Source: Nanobdellota archaeon
GTDB taxonomy: Archaea > Nanobdellota > Nanobdellia > Pacearchaeales > GW2011-AR1
Direction of reading: 5' to 3'
Assembly: GCA_038045765.1 (NCBI GenBank)
Contig: JBBSXN010000002.1
Span: forward strand, 84,450 to 131,835
Length of the DNA stretch: 47,386 bases
Of the stretch, positions 20,028 through 44,070 are shown piece after piece. How positions within the stretch are numbered: the first letter of the stretch is position 1; every line of letters begins with the position of its first letter. The position numbers were made by a program, and so were the translations under genes. The notes below the pieces were generated by a model that saw only the letters and a program-made list of their open reading frames with translations, did not search any database and was not told the origin of the DNA.

Positions 20028-22727
20028 TTAAGCATACTCAATATCCTTTGAAGGATAAGTTGTATTTAGATAAGCAGAATTTACTTTAATGTCTGAAGGA
20101 TAGCTGACCTCCCAGATTTTTATAGGGCCTCTAATTCCTCCATTTGCAACTACAAAATCGTTAGTAGTCAATCCTGCTTTTTTCAACTCTTTTACTAAGA
20201 AATCATCTTCAGAATGAGCTAGTGTGAAAAATTGATTTTCTTCTTGATATAAATAAAGTCTTGCTAATTGTGAATTAACAACTCTGGAAGAAAGATAGAT
20301 CATTGCACTATCCGATTCTACGCTCTGACCAGTGAAGATAGGTAACAGAACTACTCCTGATTCGATTCCAGATTTGAAATCTATTAGAGAATCTTTATAT
20401 GCATATCTTATAGGTATAGTATATTGTTTATTTTGATAAACAAATATTCCTTTTGGCTGAGAAAGAATATTTCCTTTTTTATCTAATTCAAGAGCAACTA
20501 TTCCAAGTCCAGCCTTGCCTTTTGGTAAGAATATTTTTGTACCATTATCCTCATAAATAATATCTTCATCTAAACTAAAACCTGCATTGTAGACATATAT
20601 AGAACCATTCTTTGTATCCTGTTTTTGCTGTGGATCTCTTCCAATTACTGGAATATAGCTCTGTCTGTCATAGTCTTTATCTGATCCTATTGAAGAGAAC
20701 GCCCCATATTTTCCTATATCTGTTGAATCTATTAAGAAATGAGTTACATTGTGTGAGTATAAGAATTCTAAAGATTCTTCATTGCTTGTGCCTGTAAGAG
20801 CATATCTGCCCATTAAATGATTCCAATAGCTTATTGCGTTTCCTCCATCTAATACTGTTGCTCTCTCTCCGATTGATTGTATCCAATAACCGTAGTCCCA
20901 CCAGTGTGCGAAGACTGCATTTTCTGAAGTATTAGTTCTAACCCAAGACATTGCAAGTTGCCATTGCTGATTATAAACATTAGGAATATAATTTTTAGAA
21001 GTATTGGAAGTCTCATTATATAAAACATATCCTGAGTAAAAGGAAGCTAGTATTACTAAACCTGCTAAAATTAGAGCAGTTGTATTTTTGGAATTATCTT
21101 TATTCTCATATGCATTATAAAATATTTTTACTGCTAAAAATGAAACAATTATTGAAGCTGGAGGAACAAGCATTAAAATCAATCTAACTGCTCCTCTAGC
21201 AGAAACTATACACAACAAGAATAGAACTAATAAAGATATTACTCCAAAGTCTAACTCTTTTAATTTTCCTTCTGAGTTATTCTTGTGCATTAAATTGTAT
21301 ATATATAATCCACCTAATATTAGTATTAAAAAGCCCAAACCATAAACAATTAAACTAATTGTATTTGTTCCGTTAAATATGCTGTCTGGTTTGTATCTGC
21401 TAAATACTAATGCTAATAAGAATAATATGTATGAGGATATTGATATTATTCTTTCTTTCTTGTCTAAATTTCTAACTAATAGAGAAACTAAAGAGACTGA
21501 ACCTATACAGAAGAGCCAAAACATTAAAGGGATTCCGTAAATAAGTGGACCAAAACTATTAGCCCATTCACTAAAGAAAGGCTGTCTATTTTCGGCTACT
21601 GTGACTCCTAGTCTGCTTGTTATAGGTGTAACAAGATTATCAATTACTTGATGGAATTGGAATTTTATGAATTCTGGCCCAAAAATAATTAATGATAAAA
21701 TAAACCCTACAACTAATATGGTTAAGAAGGCAAGGAGAGTTTTAGGTATTCTTGATAAATATTTGTTGTTTTCAATAAAATTTATTTTATTAGATTCAAT
21801 ATATCTATAAATGAAAAAGGAAGATATTGCTAAAATAGTTATTAATGAAGAGGTTGAAGTGAAGAAATGAATGGCTGAGAATCTTGTTGTGAATGGTGCG
21901 ACTGATAAATAAGAAGAAATAAGCCAGATTATTGGTATCAATATCTTTTTGTTATTATCAAATTGTTTTAAGAAGAAAGCTATTAAAACTGAGACGCTTA
22001 TTGTGAAATAAACGTAAGCTACTCCTCCCCATATTAAGGACATTGCTGCTGTTGAGGCGCCAGATAGTAAAGAAAATATAATTAAATTTTTTGTGTCTTT
22101 TGATCTCCATGCTAATAAAAAGAAATAAAGTGCGAAAAACATAAAGAAGAAAGCTGCTGATTCTTTTTCAGGAATTCCAGCTACTGTTCTTGGAAGTAAG
22201 GGTGGTAAGATTATGAAGAAAAATGAAGATAGTAAAGCAATAATGTTTGCTTTCTTTATTCCGAGAGAATTTGTAAAGATGTTTTTTACAAAAAGAAATA
22301 GAGGTATGATTGTAATAGCAAACATAAATGCAGGGAATATAGCTGATGATTGTTCTACAGAAGCGCTGCCAAATAATGTTGCTAATTTATGAAACCAGGC
22401 CATTAAATAAGGAAGAAGAAGAAGTTCTCCTTTAGTCTCAAATCCTAAAGGTACATAACGCATTGAGTCTATTGCTGTTAAGGCTCCTTGTTCAACAATC
22501 TCTTTTGCCCATCTTGTGAATAGCCAGGGGTCTAAATCAGGACCAAGAGCCCAGCCACCAGTAGAGATGTCTCTTAAACCTGCAAGATTTAAAGTTCTTA
22601 TCCAGTATGCAAAATAAACTAAAATCACTAAAACCCCATATATTATCCAATTGTATTTCACTTTTAGAAACTCAAGAGTCTTCTTTTTTCTCTCTTCAAG
22701 TAAGAAATCTTCTTGCGAATTATTCAT
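20028..22727 (-). CDS. aglB: Oligosaccharyltransferase AglB (STT3)
   Basis: DLDPW, PEKE, TVAE, HWWDYGYWI, and a DGGN...N segment; multiple TM helices followed by a soluble C-domain. ATG chosen about 22 nt after a TTTATATA box. Confidence 0.95.
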   Translation of the reverse strand: MNNSQEDFLLEERKKKTLEFLKVKYNWIIYGVLVILVYFAYWIRTLNLAGLRDISTGGWALGPDLDPWLFTRWAKEIVEQGALTAIDSMRYVPLGFETKGELLLLPYLMAWFHKLATLFGSASVEQSSAIFPAFMFAITIIPLFLFVKNIFTNSLGIKKANIIALLSSFFFIILPPLLPRTVAGIPEKESAAFFFMFFALYFFLLAWRSKDTKNLIIFSLLSGASTAAMSLIWGGVAYVYFTISVSVLIAFFLKQFDNNKKILIPIIWLISSYLSVAPFTTRFSAIHFFTSTSSLITILAISSFFIYRYIESNKINFIENNKYLSRIPKTLLAFLTILVVGFILSLIIFGPEFIKFQFHQVIDNLVTPITSRLGVTVAENRQPFFSEWANSFGPLIYGIPLMFWLFCIGSVSLVSLLVRNLDKKERIISISSYILFLLALVFSRYKPDSIFNGTNTISLIVYGLGFLILILGGLYIYNLMHKNNSEGKLKELDFGVISLLVLFLLCIVSARGAVRLILMLVPPASIIVSFLAVKIFYNAYENKDNSKNTTALILAGLVILASFYSGYVLYNETSNTSKNYIPNVYNQQWQLAMSWVRTNTSENAVFAHWWDYGYWIQSIGERATVLDGGNAISYWNHLMGRYALTGTSNEESLEFLYSHNVTHFLIDSTDIGKYGAFSSIGSDKDYDRQSYIPVIGRDPQQKQDTKNGSIYVYNAGFSLDEDIIYEDNGTKIFLPKGKAGLGIVALELDKKGNILSQPKGIFVYQNKQYTIPIRYAYKDSLIDFKSGIESGVVLLPIFTGQSVESDSAMIYLSSRVVNSQLARLYLYQEENQFFTLAHSEDDFLVKELKKAGLTTNDFVVANGGIRGPIKIWEVSYPSDIKVNSAYLNTTYPSKDIEYA

Positions 22728-22769
22728 AAACAACTGACTAAAAAGCAATATATAAAGGTTTCAGAGTAA

Positions 22770-25992: not shown

Positions 25993-26445
25993 TTAAGATG
26001 ATATTGCTAATAGAATTTTCTCTTTAAAGACTATCAAAATTAAAAGAAGAGCTATTAATATTGTGAAAGTTATTACTAAACCTATAACTACTTTCTTTGC
26101 TGTTCCTTGAAGTTGTTTTCCATCTATTTTTGGTTGAATTGCCATTGGGGAATTTGGTTGAATTGTTGGTTGCACTATCGGCTGATAAATTGGAAATTGA
26201 ATAGGGTTTGGTTTGACTTGGTTAGATTGGACTTGATTTGACTTTACTTGGTTAGATTGAACTGGATTTTCTTTTACTGCTGATGGATTTACTATTTGAG
26301 TAACTCCTGATGAGAGTTCATTTGCAGCCTCTTGTACTGTTCTAGGATTATATCCTGCATTAATAAAAGACTGAACTGCTCTTTCTAACGATTGGCCTCT
26401 TTCTAGTGCATTTCTTAGCCCTCCAATTATCTCATTATCAGTCAT
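25993..26445 (-). CDS. Hypothetical protein with Gln/Pro-rich linker and C-terminal TM anchor
   Basis: N-terminal helical domain (LRNALERGQSLERAVQSFINAGY), QSNQV repeats, C-terminal hydrophobic helix. Confidence 0.75.
   Translation of the reverse strand: MTDNEIIGGLRNALERGQSLERAVQSFINAGYNPRTVQEAANELSSGVTQIVNPSAVKENPVQSNQVKSNQVQSNQVKPNPIQFPIYQPIVQPTIQPNSPMAIQPKIDGKQLQGTAKKVVIGLVITFTILIALLLILIVFKEKILLAISS
26198..26268. repeat. Imperfect 15-bp coding tandem repeat (V[QK]SNQ pentapeptides)
   Basis: acttggttagattg occurs at 26216 and 26246; the protein reads VQSNQVKSNQVQSNQVKPNP. Confidence 0.75.
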
Positions 26446-27773
26446 AGGTTTAATACTCCTTCATTATCTAGTAAATGTACTGTTTTATTTCTTTTGTATC
26501 CCATTTCTTCAGCTAAAGATGCTCCTGCTTCTCTCTTTTTTAGTTCTCCGTGTGAGGGAATTACATGTTCTGGTTTTGTAAGGTTTATTAAATCTCTCAA
26601 ATCTTCTTTTCCACCATGACCTGAAACGTGTATATTGTCAAATATCCTTACTTGCTTTTTTTTCAATCTTTTTTCTAATTCTGCTCTTGAAAGTTCATTT
26701 ATTGGAGTTGGAATTGTTTTTGAAGAAAATATTATATCATAGTCTGAATTCAATTCAAGAGGTAATTGATTTTTTGATAACCTATCTAATATAGAACCTG
26801 GTTCGCCTTGATGCCCAGTACATACAATAAGATAATCTTTTTTATTTTTGTTTATCTGCTTAAGAATCTTTTCCATCTTGTGCCTATATGTTAAAGATTT
26901 TACGTCTTTCATGAATGGAGCTTTGCCTATATTTGAGGCAGCTGTGACATATTTGTTTAGACTCCTGCCAAGAAAAATAACCTGTCTATTCATCCTCTTT
27001 CCCAGTTCTGCAATAGTTTTTAGTCTTGAAATATGTGAAGAGAATGTTGTAATTATTATCCCTTTATTTGAATTGTCTGTTGTAAATAGAACTTCTTCAA
27101 GAAGATTCTTTGCAATTTTCTCAGAAGGAGTCTTTCTATCATCTGGAGCGTATAGGCAGTCAACTATCAATGCTTTCACTCCCATCTTAGCAAGTTCTTT
27201 CAAACGAGTATAATTTGGCTTATCTCCAAAGACAGGAGAGTTGTCAAGTTTGTAATCATTAGCGTATAAAATAATTCCTTCAGGAGTGTGCACTGCAATA
27301 ATTGCAGATTCTATTGTTGAGTGAGTCATATTTATGAACTCAACTTTATAAGGAATTTTTCCTCTTACTGTGAAACTTTGATTTGGCTTTAATGGAATTA
27401 ATCTGTTAGGTATTCTTTGATTTGAGTCTTGCATTAATACTTTTAATACTTCTATAGTATAGCTTGTTCCTAAAACTGGAGCTCTGTATCTAGGACCTAT
27501 ATATGGAACTCCTCCCACATGATCTAGATGTGCGTGTGAAATTAGTAATGCTCTTACTTTATCTTTTAAATTGTGCTTATCAAGATATAAGTCATTAGGT
27601 AAGGCACCTAGTGCTCGCATACCTTTTTCAGTAGGTATTTTTTCTCTTTCTTCAACTCCTACTATTGCAGGTAAGAAAAGCCCTGCATCAAAAATAAGAA
27701 CATCTTCTCCAACTTCTAAGATAGTCATATTCTTTCCAACTTCATCATAACCTCCTATTGCGTGTATCTTCAT
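26442..27773 (-). CDS. rnj: Archaeal ribonuclease J (beta-CASP metallo-beta-lactamase)
   Basis: IGGYDEVGKNMT, ISHAHLDHVGG, THST, DYKLD, TGHQGEP, HVSGHG, IPSHG. Confidence 0.93.
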   Translation of the reverse strand: MKIHAIGGYDEVGKNMTILEVGEDVLIFDAGLFLPAIVGVEEREKIPTEKGMRALGALPNDLYLDKHNLKDKVRALLISHAHLDHVGGVPYIGPRYRAPVLGTSYTIEVLKVLMQDSNQRIPNRLIPLKPNQSFTVRGKIPYKVEFINMTHSTIESAIIAVHTPEGIILYANDYKLDNSPVFGDKPNYTRLKELAKMGVKALIVDCLYAPDDRKTPSEKIAKNLLEEVLFTTDNSNKGIIITTFSSHISRLKTIAELGKRMNRQVIFLGRSLNKYVTAASNIGKAPFMKDVKSLTYRHKMEKILKQINKNKKDYLIVCTGHQGEPGSILDRLSKNQLPLELNSDYDIIFSSKTIPTPINELSRAELEKRLKKKQVRIFDNIHVSGHGGKEDLRDLINLTKPEHVIPSHGELKKREAGASLAEEMGYKRNKTVHLLDNEGVLNL

Positions 27774-27858
27774 TGTTTTAAAAAGCAAATCTATGTTTAT
27801 ATAACTTGTTGGACAAAAAAATGGATAGTAATAAAAAGGTTATTGATTTAAGTTTATA

Positions 27859-30157: not shown

Positions 30158-30668
30158 TAAGAAAGGTCAGGAAGAAATTGTGGGATTTGCATTGGTAATT
30201 ATAATTGTGGCTGTTGTTGGATTATTGCTTCTTGGGCTGGCTATTAGATCTGGAGATAAAGGTGCGAAGTCAGATAATTATGAAATAAGGCAGTTTCTAG
30301 ATAGTTCTATGCATGTTAGTAGCGATTGTTCTTTAAGAAGTAATATAGATTATGCTTCTGTAAGCGATTTAGTTAGGGAATGTTATAGAAATCAAGCTAG
30401 AGAGTGCTTATCTTCTGGAGAGAAGGTTTGTTTAGCACTTAATCGGAGCTTACAAGGCATTATTAATTCAGGATTGAAGATTGGACCTGAAAGGCCGAAT
30501 AAGGGTTTTATGATGAATATTAGCTTTGAGCAGAAAACAGGAGAAAGCTCAAGCTTCCTTGAATTAAAAGATGGAAAGTGCGATAAAGACTATACTGCTG
30601 GAGAGTATCTTATACCTGAAGATAGAAGTAAGGGATTAATCGTGGTGAGATTGACTTTATGCAAATAG
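30150..30668 (+). CDS. Type IV pilin-like protein (class III signal peptide)
   Basis: MVNKKG-QEEIVGFALVIIIVAVVGLLLL; six Cys. Confidence 0.72.
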   Translation: MVNKKGQEEIVGFALVIIIVAVVGLLLLGLAIRSGDKGAKSDNYEIRQFLDSSMHVSSDCSLRSNIDYASVSDLVRECYRNQARECLSSGEKVCLALNRSLQGIINSGLKIGPERPNKGFMMNISFEQKTGESSSFLELKDGKCDKDYTAGEYLIPEDRSKGLIVVRLTLCK

Positions 30669-31028
30669 CTATACTTGAATAGAAATAAGGATTGTATCTA
30701 CAACAAGTGTGGGTTTTAGCCGCTCTCTTTTACCTGTTTTTTCAGAAGTCATGTCTATAAAGCCAAATCTCTCTAAAAGCTTAATGTCTGTTGATACTGC
30801 CTTGAAATCTCGCTTTAATATCTTGGCTAAATGATATATGGAATTAGGCTTTTTTTCTTTTATTACATGTAACATCTTAGCCTTCTCATTACTTAGTAAT
30901 CTCCTGAGTGAAGTAAGGCCTTCAAAATCATAGTCTTCTTCATTGCTCGTCCACTTCTTGAAGAAAGTGTTAAAAGTTCCTGATTTATCGACGATAAAAA
31001 TTTCTCGTGTTTTAGTTTTTTGCGCCAT
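30669..31028 (-). CDS. Winged-HTH transcriptional regulator
   Basis: LRRLLSNEKAKMLHVIKEKKPNSIYHLAKILKRDFKAVSTDIKLLERFGFI. Start set at MAQKTK. Confidence 0.85.
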   Translation of the reverse strand: MAQKTKTREIFIVDKSGTFNTFFKKWTSNEEDYDFEGLTSLRRLLSNEKAKMLHVIKEKKPNSIYHLAKILKRDFKAVSTDIKLLERFGFIDMTSEKTGKRERLKPTLVVDTILISIQV

Positions 31029-31078
31029 AGTATATATAGGTCTATTAATTACATATATATAGATAATAAGGTTATATA

Positions 31079-31105
31079 AATATATGTTTTCTTTAAACAT
31101 ATATT
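31079..31105. promoter_or_regulatory. Candidate operator: perfect 11-bp inverted repeat
   Basis: aatatatgttt-(5 nt)-aaacatatatt in the divergent HTH / S-layer intergenic region. Confidence 0.45.
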
Positions 31106-31235
31106 AGTGTGTGATAAGGTGATCAGATTCTTGCTGACGAAAATCAGTGTATTCACTATGATTTACACCACAAGCTTTATAAAGGAACTTCATAGGTTAA
31201 CTGCCACTACCTCGATAGTGCGAAATTTCAGGGCA

Positions 31236-31250
31236 TAAGTTTTTAAAGGG
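31236..31250 (+). promoter_or_regulatory. Candidate TATA box for the S-layer gene
   Basis: aagtttttaaagg lies about 25 nt upstream of a hairpin starting at 31270. A second candidate (ctttataaa) lies near 31176. Confidence 0.45.
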
Positions 31251-31269
31251 TTTTTCCTTTTGTAATATT

Positions 31270-31400
31270 ACTCTAATAAGCTTAGAGTCACGCATAATGT
31301 GCCCTAAACATATTATGTAAATGGCGGGCTTCGGCCTCCCGAAAGGGGATCCTGAGGGATTGCCAATGACTAAAAAGCTGAAAGGGGGTTTAGAAAAAAG
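31270..31400 (+). ncRNA. Structured 5' leader of the S-layer mRNA containing a four-way junction (31322-31365)
   Basis: 5' hairpin actctaa/ttagagt, then tggcg[ggc-ttcg-gcc][tccc-gaaa-gggg][atcc-tgag-ggat]tgcca, then a G-rich SD-like run before the ATG. Confidence 0.6.
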
Positions 31401-34097
31401 ATGAAATTTAATTTTAAGAAGATTGCATCTGTTCTTGCAGGAACTGTATTAATGAGTTCGACACTAGCTTTTGCTGCTGCAGCAAACTATCCAGCACCAT
31501 TCGTAAAGACTGGTAATGCTGATGTATACGTAGTATACGGTAGTGCGCCTGGAGCTGAATTTGACCTAGTGGCTGTAGCTGATATTACAACAAACTTGCA
31601 AGCAGGCTTGGCCAAACAGACAGCAACTTCTGGAACAAGTGGAGCGAGTACAAGCGCAACCGGAGAAAACTATCCTTTATTCACAAGTTCCTCTGAACTG
31701 TTTTTAAACAGTACATTGGACAGCGTAGTAAAAACATTGACTCCTACTGAATTACCAACAATCTTAGCAGACGACACCTTCGACGGTGACACAACTGCAA
31801 CATATGAGCAAAGAATCACTCTTGGAAGCAACCCAATACTTAGTTTTGCGAAGCAACCAACTGATGATGATGACCCTCAATATGGATTGACACTTGGTAC
31901 TACTGTTGGAACTCAATATGTTTACAACGCTACAGTTGTATTTGATACAGCTGTTAACTTTACTCATGCTGACTCAAAAGGTCAGGAATTGAGTATCTTT
32001 GGACAGAAATTCACAATCGGTTCTGCAACTACAAACACAAAACTTATTTTGTTCAAATCATCTGAAAAGATATACTTAGACTCTGAAAGCAATCCTTCCC
32101 AAACTGTTACAGTTGCGGGTATGGAATATACTGTATCTCTTGTAGCTGCTACTGATACCAGTGCAACTGTCAAGGTTACAGATGCTTCAGGAAAGAGTGA
32201 ACAGAAAGAAGTAAACGAAGCAGCATCAAAGAAAGTAAATGGAGTTGAAGTTGGTGTTAATAGCGCTGATGAATCAACAGCATTGAACAAATTGACTGCT
32301 GAAGTAGTTGTTGGAGCAGATAGAGTAACTTTACAGGATGGAAATGCTGTAAAGATAGGTTCTGACGAAGACACAGTTGATGGAACAAATGTTGAGTTTA
32401 GAGACTCATCGAATTCTAGAACAACCTATATGGGTAATGTAACTAGAATGTTATTCCAAGCTACTGCTGTTGATAGCTCTCATGATGCCATGGTTCCTGG
32501 AGATTCATTCACTGACCCAGTATTCGGATCTTTCAAAGTTGACTTTAGCGGTATTAGTATCGCTGCAGACTCAACTTCAAGAGAAGATATTGTAGTGAAG
32601 AACTCTGGAAACGACAAAATGAGTGTTAAGTTTAAGGACTATTCTGGTGCTGAAAAGACCGTTACATACGTTTATAACAAAACAGATTCTGACGGAAGTG
32701 GAATGCAATTAGCTGACTCTGATGGAGACAATATTATTGTTGAAGAAAACGCTTTGGTTAACAAATCCTACTATGTTGTTCTTGCAAACAAGGACAGAGG
32801 AGGATTGTATGAAGTAACTGGTTTAACTAACAGTTCTTCTACAACTGCTAGCGATGACGAATTGACAGTAAGAAATGTATTCACAGATGCTTCAACTACT
32901 GCAAAAGCTACTTCAGAAGGTTCTGGTACAATCACTGTTGAAGGATTATCATTTAGTTATACATACACTGGTGCTCAAACACTATCTGATGTAGCTAGAC
33001 AGGTAAAATTCAACTATCCTGAAAGTACTGGAAACGACAAAATATACTTCCCTACTATTAAAACAAGTAAGGGAGCATTATTAGCGTTCTATCAACCAAC
33101 TAACATCAACTTGACTTCACAGTCATTAGATGCAGCAAATATACAATTACCTAACGGTAATGGTTATACTGCTGTTGCTGTTGCTAACGCTGGAGGTCTA
33201 CATAACTATACTTTTGGAGGAACTACTGCTGTTAATACAACAGGTGCAAGTGGAGCATCATCAAGTGGTGCTATTACTGTTGGACAATTAACATACAACG
33301 TTAGTTCAAGAGCTATTGTTAATACGACTACTCTTAACTTGCTTTCTCCTGAGGGAGGAAACATTGTAAGACCTGCTGTTGTTATATTTGAAGAAAAGGA
33401 TGACAATAATGCATATCATGCATTAATAGTTACCTTGGACGCAGGATATGACGGAGACAGTGCTGGAATTGGAGTAAACGATGTTGTAAGAACTTACTCA
33501 AAAGATACAAACGGTGGTAATGGTGGAAACGAAGTGCAACTAGAAAGCAACTCTGACTTATATAAGGACGCTGACTTATGGGGATCTATATCTACTCTTG
33601 ATAAAGCAGATAGTGATCAAACCCAGGCAACAGTTAGTTATCCTGATAATCAAGTTCAGGGATATGTTTATGTAGCTGCAAACGATGCTGCTATTACAAC
33701 TGAATCTGGATCTACTGGTTCTGGAAGTGTTAAGGAACTCGGTTCTGTACTTGTAAAAGATTCTGAAGTTGCATCATTACCTTCTAAGAACTTAGTTGTT
33801 GTTGGAGGTTCATGTATCAACGCTGAATCTGCTAGATTGCTAGGTGTCTCTCCTGCTACATGCGGAGCTGACTTCACTGCAAAAGCTGGTGTGGGAGCTG
33901 GTCAATTTTTGATCCAGACTTTCGCTAAAGGCACTGATAAAGTCGCAACATTAGTTGCTGGCTATAACGCTGCTGATACCCAGAATGCTGCAAAGGTCTT
34001 GACAACCAAAGCTGATCTTGACACAAGTGCTGGCAAAAAGTACGTAAGTACTAGTGCTACCGCTGTTGAACTTAAGACTACTGCTACAACTGTTTAA
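31401..34097 (+). CDS. Major S-layer glycoprotein
   Basis: Signal peptide MKFNFKKIASVLAG...AAAANYPAPFV, VYVVYG and C-terminal NLVVVGGSCIN motifs (Methanococcales/DPANN S-layer type); Thr/Ser/Asp-rich; about 12 N-X-S/T sequons; C-ending codon bias. Confidence 0.88.
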   Translation: MKFNFKKIASVLAGTVLMSSTLAFAAAANYPAPFVKTGNADVYVVYGSAPGAEFDLVAVADITTNLQAGLAKQTATSGTSGASTSATGENYPLFTSSSELFLNSTLDSVVKTLTPTELPTILADDTFDGDTTATYEQRITLGSNPILSFAKQPTDDDDPQYGLTLGTTVGTQYVYNATVVFDTAVNFTHADSKGQELSIFGQKFTIGSATTNTKLILFKSSEKIYLDSESNPSQTVTVAGMEYTVSLVAATDTSATVKVTDASGKSEQKEVNEAASKKVNGVEVGVNSADESTALNKLTAEVVVGADRVTLQDGNAVKIGSDEDTVDGTNVEFRDSSNSRTTYMGNVTRMLFQATAVDSSHDAMVPGDSFTDPVFGSFKVDFSGISIAADSTSREDIVVKNSGNDKMSVKFKDYSGAEKTVTYVYNKTDSDGSGMQLADSDGDNIIVEENALVNKSYYVVLANKDRGGLYEVTGLTNSSSTTASDDELTVRNVFTDASTTAKATSEGSGTITVEGLSFSYTYTGAQTLSDVARQVKFNYPESTGNDKIYFPTIKTSKGALLAFYQPTNINLTSQSLDAANIQLPNGNGYTAVAVANAGGLHNYTFGGTTAVNTTGASGASSSGAITVGQLTYNVSSRAIVNTTTLNLLSPEGGNIVRPAVVIFEEKDDNNAYHALIVTLDAGYDGDSAGIGVNDVVRTYSKDTNGGNGGNEVQLESNSDLYKDADLWGSISTLDKADSDQTQATVSYPDNQVQGYVYVAANDAAITTESGSTGSGSVKELGSVLVKDSEVASLPSKNLVVVGGSCINAESARLLGVSPATCGADFTAKAGVGAGQFLIQTFAKGTDKVATLVAGYNAADTQNAAKVLTTKADLDTSAGKKYVSTSATAVELKTTATTV

Positions 34098-34115
34098 GAA
34101 CAATTGAAGAAAAGT

Positions 34116-34170
34116 AATTTATTTTTTTTATTTTTTTCTTCTTTTATTTTTTCTCCCCTTAAGGGAGAAA
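34116..34170 (+). terminator. T-tract terminator plus hairpin downstream of the S-layer gene
   Basis: About 35 nt of T runs followed by tttctccc-cttaa-gggagaaa. Confidence 0.65.
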
Positions 34171-34251
34171 GTTTCGGCATCGCTTTTTGATTGAAATTTT
34201 TATATTTCTGTTTTTGGTAACTTTTTTAAATACCTAATTTGTTAGAATAGT

Positions 34252-34821
34252 ATGAGGCAAATAGGAAAAGTTGAAGATCCCGATAAAAGTAAAAAGAGAA
34301 ATGTTATGTATATGGCTCTCTTTATGCTTTTGACTCTTGTTTTAAGTACTGTTGGTTTTGCTTTCTATTATAATGATACTTCTAATACTAATACTGCTCC
34401 CTTAGTAGAAGGAGAATCTGCTCCTTTGACTGTACAACAACAAGGAAATAGATGGGCTGTACCTTTTAGAGGACAGTATCTTTATTTTGCATATCCTCCT
34501 AACGTTACTTCTAATGTTGAGATTGATATTCAGAAAGAGGTAGGTGATTATTATGGTGCTAATTTATATGTCGATTATAAGAAAGAATACATTTATTCGG
34601 AGATAAAAGATACTTTAGGAAGATATGTTCTGGAAACTTCTAAGGCTTGTTATGGCTCATGTCTTGAAAATATACCTGAAAAGAATTGTGGTGAAAATAT
34701 GATTGTTTTCAATGAGAGTAAAGTAGAAAGAATTTACCAAAAAGATAAATGTATATTTATAGACGGTGATTTAAGAACGGTTGATGTTGCTTTGTATAAG
34801 ATTTTAGGCATAACTGCTTAG
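34252..34821 (+). CDS. Membrane-anchored hypothetical surface protein
   Basis: Basic N-terminus, one TM helix, four-Cys ectodomain. Confidence 0.75.
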   Translation: MRQIGKVEDPDKSKKRNVMYMALFMLLTLVLSTVGFAFYYNDTSNTNTAPLVEGESAPLTVQQQGNRWAVPFRGQYLYFAYPPNVTSNVEIDIQKEVGDYYGANLYVDYKKEYIYSEIKDTLGRYVLETSKACYGSCLENIPEKNCGENMIVFNESKVERIYQKDKCIFIDGDLRTVDVALYKILGITA

Positions 34822-43124: not shown

Positions 43125-43237
43125 TGGGGGTGCCAAGATTTGAACTTGGATCATGAAGTTGTCTGTGTTTCCATCTCTTGAATATGAGACGCAATCAACC
43201 CAAACCTCATATGTTAACCAGGTTGCACCACACCCCC
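43125..43237 (-). tRNA. tRNA-Pro(UGG) with a 39-nt intron at canonical position 37/38 (intron 43160-43198)
   Basis: GGGGGTG/CACCCCC acceptor stem, CCAAG-TTCAAAT-CTTGG T-arm, TGAGG/CTTCA anticodon stem, loop TT-TGG-G|A. BHB central helix TTTG/CAGA with 3-nt bulges. CCA not encoded. Confidence 0.93.
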
Positions 43238-43263: not shown

Positions 43264-44070
43264 TTAATACTTACTAATTCTTTTCTCAAGTATTTTATTC
43301 AGATAATTCATCTTACCACTTCCAGAAAATCCTATTAATTCTTTATAATTATAAAGACTAATGCTTCTAACTCTAACGAAGTGTAATGGTCTAGTATTAC
43401 CTCCTCTCGCTAGAACTCTTCTGGTAATCTCAAGATTATTTTTAATAAATATATCTGCTAAATTATTCATCAACTTTTCTGAAATGCAGGCGCAAGCAGC
43501 ATTTGCAGTATTCATAAATCCATCTGTATCCATTAAACCTCTTGCAAAACCTCTTAAGAAATCATCTGAATATTCAGAAATTTCTTTTCTTAATCTAATA
43601 CTAAATGTCTTACCTTTTTCCCAAATCAGATAAGATTTTATGAATTCAATATATTCTTTTGAACTTATATTAACTATGAAAACGCTTTTATTTTCCATAA
43701 TACAAGGATTTAAATTTAATTTTATTAAAAGATTCTTTAAGTATTCAGCGTAATCTGCCTCTTTTGCATAAGTTAAGAAATATCTAACTCTGTGCTGGTT
43801 GGTTTTCTTTGGAAATTTTGGATCATAACTATTATGATAATAATTACCGTCTCCTGCAAATGCTCCAATTAACTCACCTATTTGAAAATCATTTAAATTG
43901 ACTATAAAATCTTTCTTTATTCTAGGCTTGAACTTTCTGACTTGATAATAAATTGTGGGCTTGCCCAAATTCATTAATTTAGACAAATAATTAAGACTCT
44001 TTCCTTCATCTGTTAATCTTCTTATTAATTGTAAATCATCTGATGATAATCTTTCATTCTTAATTCTCAT
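43264..44070 (-). CDS. Free-standing LAGLIDADG (DOD-type) homing endonuclease-like protein with N-terminal HTH
   Basis: Two motifs, ELIGAFAGDG and GFARGLMDTDG; N-terminal EGKSLNYLSKLMNLGKPTIYYQV HTH; no intein splicing motifs. Confidence 0.85.
   Translation of the reverse strand: MRIKNERLSSDDLQLIRRLTDEGKSLNYLSKLMNLGKPTIYYQVRKFKPRIKKDFIVNLNDFQIGELIGAFAGDGNYYHNSYDPKFPKKTNQHRVRYFLTYAKEADYAEYLKNLLIKLNLNPCIMENKSVFIVNISSKEYIEFIKSYLIWEKGKTFSIRLRKEISEYSDDFLRGFARGLMDTDGFMNTANAACACISEKLMNNLADIFIKNNLEITRRVLARGGNTRPLHFVRVRSISLYNYKELIGFSGSGKMNYLNKILEKRISKY

Follow-up and report, generated by a model that had tools for sequence, protein, structure and literature searches.

Does the GC-rich stretch lying directly in front of an S-layer-like gene of a tiny groundwater archaeon form a functional RNA and, if so, what may this RNA do for the message that carries it? 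The host genome comprises 880 kb in 7 contigs and has a GC content of 32%. The window analysed in this study (the whole stretch of 47,386 nucleotides) is a part of its contig C2, and the stretch in question is located in the interval 31101-31400, between a divergent HTH gene and an ORF of 898 aa. The features that frame or accompany this interval are as follows.

20028-22748: STT3/AglB-like ORF, 906 aa, in the glycosylation cluster
26442-27788, minus strand: RNase J gene, 3.5 kb upstream of the leader
30669-31100, minus strand: HTH gene, the divergent neighbour (Pfam HVO_A0114; HTH DNA-binding type)
31240-31247, plus strand: promoter TATA box of the S-layer gene (TTTTTAAA), conserved in orthologous upstream regions
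31401-34097, plus strand: S-layer-like glycoprotein gene, 898 aa (ORF with a signal-peptide-like N-terminus and an AANYPAPF motif)

Sequence searches of the 898-aa protein against Pfam, NCBIfam and PDB gave no match. Its nearest ESM Atlas clusters (scores of 0.97-0.98) are labelled S-layer-like and PF05124 is found on 82-88% of their members, which is taken as a lead. The protein is likely the major envelope protein of the host. An N-glycosylation cluster including STT3/AglB adjoins its gene; this large protein-glycosylation cluster occupies positions 25-23627 of the window, upstream of the S-layer-like gene, and comprises, apart from the 906-aa STT3/AglB-like ORF, GT1, GT2, GT4 and GT9 transferases, a DegT aminotransferase, a flippase-like Polysacc_synt protein and PMT_2. 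The RNase J gene, which the first-pass annotation of this DNA had placed near the leader, is indeed present.

According to the same annotation, most genes here look leaderless, and within the window this view gained support: 18 of the 36 ORFs of at least 180 aa show the leaderless signature, a TATA-like box placed ~27-28 nt ahead of the start codon, and an SD-like motif precedes 4 of the 36, both figures being rough, since the longest ORF was taken to define each start. When this spacing of 27-28 nt is applied to the TATA box at 31240-31247, transcription of the S-layer-like gene is predicted to start at ~31269-31270, which gives a leader of ~131 nt. Further upstream, a second TATA-like box (TTTATAAA, 31176-83), forming a perfect palindrome with its flanks, is situated 64 nt from the TTTTTAAA box, and in 11 of 15 upstream regions of orthologues, which belong to several genera, two such boxes are again 63-64 nt apart. 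Between the two boxes lies another conserved box, ctacctcgatagtgcgaaat (31207-26). The region 31176-31247 is not covered by RNA contigs, and the paired TATA-like boxes could represent a tandem promoter or a regulator site.

The stretch itself had been described as a GC-rich 44-mer in an AT-rich genome, folding into four helices, P1-P4, with no unpaired junction base, and the sequence reads exactly so: there are zero unpaired bases where the four helices meet.

31322-31365, plus strand: four-way junction P1-P4 (from the sequence, model searches and alignments)
31322-26/31361-65, plus strand: helix P1, tggcg/tgcca, the last pair being G.U
31327-29/31334-36, plus strand: helix P2, ggc/gcc, with the loop UUCG
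31337-40/31345-48, plus strand: helix P3, tccc/gggg, with the loop GAAA
31349-52/31357-60, plus strand: helix P4, atcc/ggat, with the loop UGAG

The 44-mer has a GC content of 66%, as against 32% for the genome. Equally GC-rich windows of 44 nt number 291 among 879,729 and fall into 25 regions, 10 of which are tRNAs. Two other such islands of this genome (C3:24511-24571 and C2:177201-177263) contain neither an ARAGORN-predicted tRNA nor glycine-rich repeats and may be further structured RNAs, e.g. SRP RNA, RNase P RNA or pieces of rRNA.

Folded by itself as a single sequence, the 44-mer shows no excess over chance. The minimum free energy (MFE) structure given by RNAfold is an elongated hairpin (-20.9 kcal/mol) and not the four-way junction (-16.2 kcal/mol), which accounts for ~1% of the structures sampled for the window's own sequence; compared with shuffled sequences, z is -1.57, and 16 of 200 shuffles are equally stable. 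The minus strand of the element is no better than its shuffles (z 0.13). The whole 146-nt leader is stabler than shuffled sequences (z -3.63, 0/200). The non-significant z-score of the single sequence and the conserved DNA boxes in the nearby promoter region are what could be expected if the 44-mer were a chance GC-rich palindrome, or an element acting as DNA (a cruciform or a transcription-factor site), without any function as RNA. It is the comparison with relatives of the host that goes beyond chance.

The same four abutting helices were identified upstream of the orthologous S-layer-like gene in related DPANN genomes, amounting to 44 distinct sequences, and in 33 of these 44 the MFE structure of the isolated element consists of three enclosed hairpins, the window's own copy being among the exceptions. 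A BLAST-type DNA search of 40 relatives, with 31240-31420 as the query, retrieved the junction in 4 of 7 genomes of the same genus (G001, G002, G005, where it occurs twice, and G006); the congeneric genomes G003, G004 and G007 yielded nothing below E 0.03, and remoter genomes matched in the SD and start region only. Another approach was to scan a single genome of each species for a sequence pattern. This returned at least 120 stretches, mostly bacterial chance matches, which were dropped, and loci were kept only if an ORF of the M..FNF(K/R)KIAS type followed. Among the matches listed, at least 19 DPANN loci had an ORF with this beginning downstream, the related loci belonging to MAG records of Pacearchaeota, Woesearchaeota or Nanoarchaeota. 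The P4 loop, the P4 closing pairs and the pre-SD motif were fixed in the scan, and variation at these positions is therefore known from the model searches alone.

At all 23 loci with candidates from the anchor script, a P1 of 4-5 bp, the P2 hairpin, the P3 hairpin, P4 and the return strand of P1 abut. In the 36-sequence alignment described below, a few sequences (L034, L115, L072 and L132) have one extra nucleotide ahead of P4. Across the relatives P2 varies from 3 to 8 bp and carries many unrelated loops, P3 has 4-5 bp, and the loops of P3 and P4 are also variable. The two canonical tetraloops (UUCG and GAAA), which had been put forward as a feature of the structure, are thus not conserved and are particular to this species.

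The distribution of the element was examined with two covariance models, R1 (built from 8 sequences, 16 pairs) and R2 (from 36 sequences). R1 gave a single match in each of 17 genomes out of 151, which had been sampled from the host's family at one per genus, while R2 found matches in 17 of 105 genomes of this family versus 0 of 45 genomes from eight other families of the same order. The filters were strict and many genomes are incomplete, so that these counts mean "not found" rather than "absent"; for example, at strict settings R1 misses the divergent version of G016 (12 bits, E 0.35), which was parsed by eye. The element was detected in one family only and was not found in most of the sampled genomes of that family, which suggests that S-layer expression does not in general depend on it.

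The position of the element relative to the downstream gene is much the same everywhere. Outside the host's own genome, 15 of 16 R1 matches end 29-38 nt before an S-layer-like ORF of the M..FNF(K/R)KIAS type, the remaining one being located at a contig end, and the same distance was observed for 11 of 13 R2 loci examined, with the exceptions of L168 and L170. Overall, 29-38 nt separate the junction end from the start codon at all 35 loci whose start was recognised, and the distance from the TATA box to the junction ranges from 32 to 138 nt. Both exceptional loci have peculiar surroundings. L168 (G239:C5) has a rearranged leader, whose junction and SD are set apart by an additional, inserted hairpin, and two partial repeated copies of junction-like sequence lie upstream of its junction. 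L170 (G250:C14:4977-5020) is a weak match (E 0.005) inside a tandem repeat of ~30 nt, whose unit ends with ...CCAACCTGCGGGATTGCAA, resembling the 3' half of P4/P1; no S-layer-like gene adjoins it and the match is probably spurious.

The decisive evidence for an RNA structure comes from an alignment of 36 sequences. In this alignment, 97.4% of 570 pair cells contain standard pairs, a figure to be read with the fact that the alignment was model-built from preselected matches, whose fit to the model favours the structure. Thirteen of the 16 pairs change on both sides (89 cells) and all four helices are affected. None of 500 column shuffles reached any of five measures, and when the partners were slid by 1-3 columns, pairing fell to 45-52%. 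RNAalifold predicted the same four helices from this alignment, and it also recovered the four helices from an unsupervised MAFFT alignment of 11 sequences. Structural conservation with covariation in orthologous leaders, the check proposed together with the original observation, was thus found.

Conservation at the junction extends beyond what pairing needs. The P1 pair C4:G92 is kept in all 36 sequences. Two uridines at the crossover are invariant: the P1 one is paired as G.U in 29 and as A-U in 6 of the 36 sequences, and the P3 one as U.G in 23 and as U-A in 10. P3 and P4 have UCC/GGR cores, with C-G in 35/36, and this retention of sequence as well as structure hints at a specific binding partner. 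On the opposite strand, the G.U pairs of the junction would become A.C, so that they fit an RNA of the plus strand only.

These observations weigh heavily against a chance palindrome or a DNA element, which predicts neither compensatory changes in four helices nor pairs that would be A.C on the opposite strand; moreover, the minus strand folds no better than its shuffles and scores far lower with the covariance model, and the element is located downstream of the predicted transcription start and is present in contigs from RNA libraries. We consider this explanation extremely improbable. As judged from comparative sequence evidence, the four-way junction is a real conserved RNA element.

Four RNA-library runs from four studies were compared with the region 30500-34400, in the form of assembled contigs (28 of 108 pieces listed). 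Three contigs, each from a separate study, run from the leader into the coding sequence: X5 (31287-31504, 1 mismatch), X13 (31303-31591, 0 mismatches) and X7 (31322-31676, 1 mismatch). The fourth run, X11, contains parts of the S-layer-like gene and the leader of a relative, and loose contig ends in the same libraries correspond to junction sequences of relatives. In all four runs the depth is zero over 30500-31285 and beyond 34168; the neighbouring genes being uncovered, general carry-over of DNA is unlikely. Assembled contigs give neither strand, true ends nor level, so the contig starts at 31287, 31303 and 31322 are not evidence of transcription start or processing sites. Since the contigs join the element to the coding sequence, a transcription start downstream of 31365, which would have placed the junction outside the message, is unlikely. 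Together with the covariation and the strand bias of the G.U pairs, this bears out the original proposal of a structured cis-acting RNA on the plus strand of the S-layer leader.

Could the junction nevertheless be an independent or processed small RNA acting in trans, or a tRNA-like processing signal? It is a GC-rich island, as are the tRNAs of this genome, its topology resembles a cloverleaf, and one of the RNA contigs begins exactly at 31322. On the other side, contigs of two other studies begin upstream of the junction and reach the coding sequence, the element precedes the same gene at a fixed distance, and the sequence after the junction contains no terminator-like U-tract. ARAGORN and the Rfam tRNA model were both negative at the junction, the loops are variable and have 3-5 nt instead of 7, and there are no spacer nucleotides, so that a tRNA or tRNA-like identity was rejected. 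This explanation is, in our opinion, very unlikely.

Neither did the junction correspond to a known RNA family. At the gathering threshold, Rfam 15 reported only a tRNA at 43125-43237 (minus strand) in the whole window, and a search of 31050-31450 with E-values up to 10 gave nothing on the 44-mer; the top permissive match in that region was preQ1-II on the minus strand (31234-31320, 22.7 bits with a threshold of 47, E 0.16). ARAGORN called zero tRNAs in the window; the Rfam match at 43125-43237 (113 nt, 44.2 bits), which it left uncalled, is probably an intron-containing archaeal tRNA. An ORF adjoining it (43264-44070, minus strand) has a weak match to LAGLIDADG_3 (E 4e-6).

BLAST and the covariance model agreed on a single copy of the element in the host's own genome, so it is neither a member of a known family nor a dispersed repeat, either of which would have told against the first-pass reading. 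With four helices and no unpaired nucleotide between them, it belongs to the structural class of perfect 4H RNA four-way junctions, a class assignment made at the level of base pairing. Two functional classes were considered and rejected: a hairpin ribozyme, as all arms are continuous short helices without the internal loops A/B, and a junction-type riboswitch pocket, as the 36-sequence alignment shows no conserved unpaired nucleotides in the junction or the loops and the loops of P2, P3 and P4 vary. The texts reached by a full-text literature search yielded no published description. The junction is apparently an undescribed RNA element and a candidate for a new Rfam family; what is new is this junction in a DPANN leader, structured S-layer leaders being already known as a kind.

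The junction is embedded in a larger leader, whose remaining parts are listed below.

31270-31288, plus strand: hairpin HP1, ACUCUA-AUAAGCU-UAGAGU (from the sequence; kept in most long-leader orthologues)
31286-31290, plus strand: 5' strand of the long-range helix P0, AGUCA (from the leader MFE structure; overlaps HP1 by 3 nt)
31292-31318, plus strand: variable hairpin Pv, 10 bp here (predicted; orthologues hold a hairpin of unrelated sequence at this place)
31367-31371, plus strand: 3' strand of P0, UGACU (from the leader MFE structure; its partner changes in orthologues)
31375-31380, plus strand: conserved AAGCUG before the SD, a possible partner of the HP1 loop AAGCU
31383-31389, plus strand: Shine-Dalgarno site AGGGGGU (AGGAGGU in most relatives)

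Two of these parts, a hairpin ahead of the junction at the predicted transcript start and a G-rich SD after it, had been noticed from the outset and are present as HP1 and the site at 31383-89. The predicted transcription start coincides with the first base of HP1. The loop of this hairpin (..AAGC(U)) is also kept in most long-leader orthologues, and leaders whose TATA box is only 32-50 nt away from the junction have no HP1. P0 encloses Pv and the four-way junction, and its partners change together in orthologues: GUUAC/GUAAC, AGUUC/GAGCU, GUACUG/CAGUAC, GUACUC/GAGUAC and GUACC/GGUAC. The duplex energy of a leader's own P0 pair is -5.83 versus -4.89 kcal/mol for cross pairs (n=40, 0/2000 permutations), although relatedness overstates the independence of these sequences. 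AAGCUG and the AAGC loop of HP1 are, by eye, mostly present or absent together (L157 and L150 are discordant), without covariation, and their pairing is put forward as an idea only.

The SD matches the 3' end of 16S rRNA (...GGAUCACCUCCU; ...CACCUCCU), as read in two element-carrying members of the family (L173 and L174). The anti-SD was read from relatives because the host's own 16S rRNA gene is cut by a contig end, only its 5' part (~700 nt, C5:35-740) being assembled. In the same two relatives, the 3' strand of 16S helix 45 (GGGGAACCUGCGG) resembles the GGGG(A/G)UCCUG(C/A)GGG of P3-3'/P4 (window positions 31345-31365). This likeness (GGGG..CCUGCGG) is probably due to chance, since the P4 loop varies in relatives and the common word is short.

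What, then, may such a leader do? The reading that we prefer, and to which we give about an even chance of being correct on the analyses above, is that it acts in cis as a stabiliser and an organiser of the translation start of the abundant S-layer mRNA. The 44-mer would form the core of a 5' leader, ~131 nt long, conserved and folded, on the S-layer-like message, composed of HP1 at the predicted transcript start, P0 enclosing Pv and the junction, an A-rich linker, an SD of 7 nt and the start codon. The junction, a compact knot of four helices in which one junction base at most is unpaired, would end close to the expected 5' boundary of a bound small ribosomal subunit. It may block 5'-to-3' decay, the RNase J of this genome being the presumed nuclease. 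By locking GC-rich, anti-SD-like strands (UCCUC and GUCC) in local helices it may also keep the strong SD usable, and this on a message that would be needed in very large amounts. The transcription start, the stabilising or translational role and RNase J as the nuclease are all parts of the proposal that we infer.

Four facts bear on this mechanism: HP1 is flush with the predicted transcription start, the compact junction is fixed at the upstream border of the ribosome-binding region, the SD is very strong although the other genes here mostly look leaderless, and naturally short leaders exist that would have the junction as their 5' structure. In the shortest leaders (L146 and L148) it starts a few nucleotides after the predicted transcription start and would thus be 5'-terminal. 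As regards a structure at the very 5' end, which is expected of a 5' stabiliser, HP1 begins at the predicted start (31270), and the RNA contigs begin at 31287 or later. Less favourable are the full-leader ensembles, in which the SD is unpaired with a probability above 0.5 in only 2 of 43 leaders; about half of the leaders pair it with the 5' ACUCU, and others with the coding region. An SD predicted to be mostly paired is an ill fit to a simple role of keeping this site open and, together with the extra conservation of P3 and P4, it keeps two further models alive.

According to one of them, the junction is an operator for a trans-acting protein (the S-layer precursor, a ribosomal protein or another RNA-binding protein) that tunes translation, i.e. 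a device for feedback control. The constant 29-38 nt to the start codon, whatever the leader length, would suit such an operator, as would the sequences kept near the junction beyond pairing (C4:G92 in 36/36, the two invariant U and the UCC/GGR cores), and free loop sequences are expected if shape and junction-proximal pairs are read. No candidate protein has emerged; the product of the divergent neighbour (30669-31100) is of the HTH DNA-binding type, and sister genera have a plain hairpin in place of the junction. We regard the operator model as unlikely.

The plain hairpin was seen in the S-layer leaders L008, L010, L013 and L015. These sister-genus leaders lack the junction and contain a GUUGUC-NUA-GACAAC hairpin instead, which by hand count ends 31-38 nt before the start in 3 of the 4; common to all of them is also a long-range complementarity, uucuaauaggg ... 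cccuaugg. The hairpin may be an alternative module at the same place.

The other model is a two-state translational switch, in which the 5' ACUCU would pair either with UAGAGU, forming HP1 and leaving the SD free, or with the real SD. In the SD-bound state the AAGCU loop would pair with AAGCUG and P0 would zip the leader ends together. Which state prevails would be decided by the junction domain, responding to Mg2+, temperature, a ligand or a similar signal. The leader MFE structure does contain the pairings ACUCU:SD, AGCUU:AAGCU and AGUCA:UGACU, and in 22 of 43 leaders the share of SD pairing with the 5' region is at least 0.4. Furthermore, the loop and 3' strand of HP1 (AAGCUUAGAGU) resemble AAGCUG..AGGAGGU, and the AAGC loop and the pre-SD AGCUG mostly occur, or are missing, jointly, as noted above. 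These pairings come from a nearest-neighbour model, whose thermodynamic prediction of long-range pairs is unreliable; ACUCU:SD and AGCU:AGCU show no covariation, because both sides are nearly invariant; short-leader species manage without HP1; and conserved unpaired nucleotides that could form a ligand pocket are missing. A switch of this kind is, in our judgement, quite improbable.

The boldest version of this model, and one that we likewise hold to be improbable, describes the leader as a new archaeal translational riboregulator: ACUCU would serve as an anti-SD that toggles between the true SD and a local mimic of it provided by HP1 with its 3' strand, and the junction, locked by P0 to the ribosome-binding site, would be the sensor or scaffold. 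The signal could be an ion, temperature or a protein.

Returning to the proposed cis-acting stabiliser, its nearest functional counterparts would be the bacterial 5' stabilisers, such as the leaders of E. coli ompA, B. subtilis aprE, cryIIIA (STAB-SD) and Lactobacillus slpA, which protect mRNAs against 5'-end-dependent decay, including that by RNase J1 in Bacillus. They resemble the present leader, as predicted, in a structure at or near the 5' end and a strong SD on the mRNA of an abundant envelope protein; however, they are simple hairpins or an SD-like site without a four-helix junction, and the archaeal decay machinery differs. As for architecture, perfect 4H RNA junctions (Lilley nomenclature) are known from the hairpin ribozyme and U1 snRNA. 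Like these, the element has four helices without unpaired nucleotides, for which pairwise coaxial stacking into an ion-dependent X-shape is to be expected, but it lacks the internal loops A/B, an Sm site and a snRNP context, and its arms have only 3-8 bp and are capped by small loops. Junctions are also the basis of riboswitches, e.g. the four-way junction of SAM-I and the three-way junction of the purine riboswitch. The similarity consists in a multi-helix junction just upstream of the SD, with alternative SD pairing being conceivable; in contrast, the present element has no conserved unpaired pocket and no Rfam match, and the gene downstream of it is not metabolic.

To our knowledge, descriptions of structured cis-acting RNAs from DPANN archaea are few. 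The hosts of this element are uncultured and have reduced genomes, and leaderless messages prevail in the window. The motif combines strong covariation, a link to one gene and presence in environmental RNA libraries, and it is a compact, naturally occurring perfect four-helix junction whose crossover carries conserved G.U pairs.

Among archaea, the closest parallel is the S-layer mRNA slmA1 of Methanosarcina, which has a conserved, structured 5' UTR of 154 nt, whose role is stated as unknown; slmA1 is described there as the most highly expressed archaeal S-layer gene, located behind a TATA promoter, and the conservation of the UTR is given as >91% identity between close species, with no covariation analysis in the text seen (PMC3361143). 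Compared by description only, the two leaders are alike in being long and conserved, with a predicted structure, an S-layer gene and a TATA promoter; the slmA1 UTR belongs to another phylum, and the part of its description available to us does not include a four-way junction. S-layer gene UTRs are also reported to raise protein yield in Sulfolobus and, as cited there, in Methanococcus (PMC11627041).

If the riboregulator version were true, S-layer synthesis would be coupled to the cell's condition in organisms with otherwise mostly leaderless genes. Irrespective of its mode of action, the element offers a handle on how archaea secure very high S-layer expression, a question left open for the slmA1 UTR, and its short natural versions (junction, a linker of ~18 nt and SD) could be a portable expression leader for archaeal genetics.
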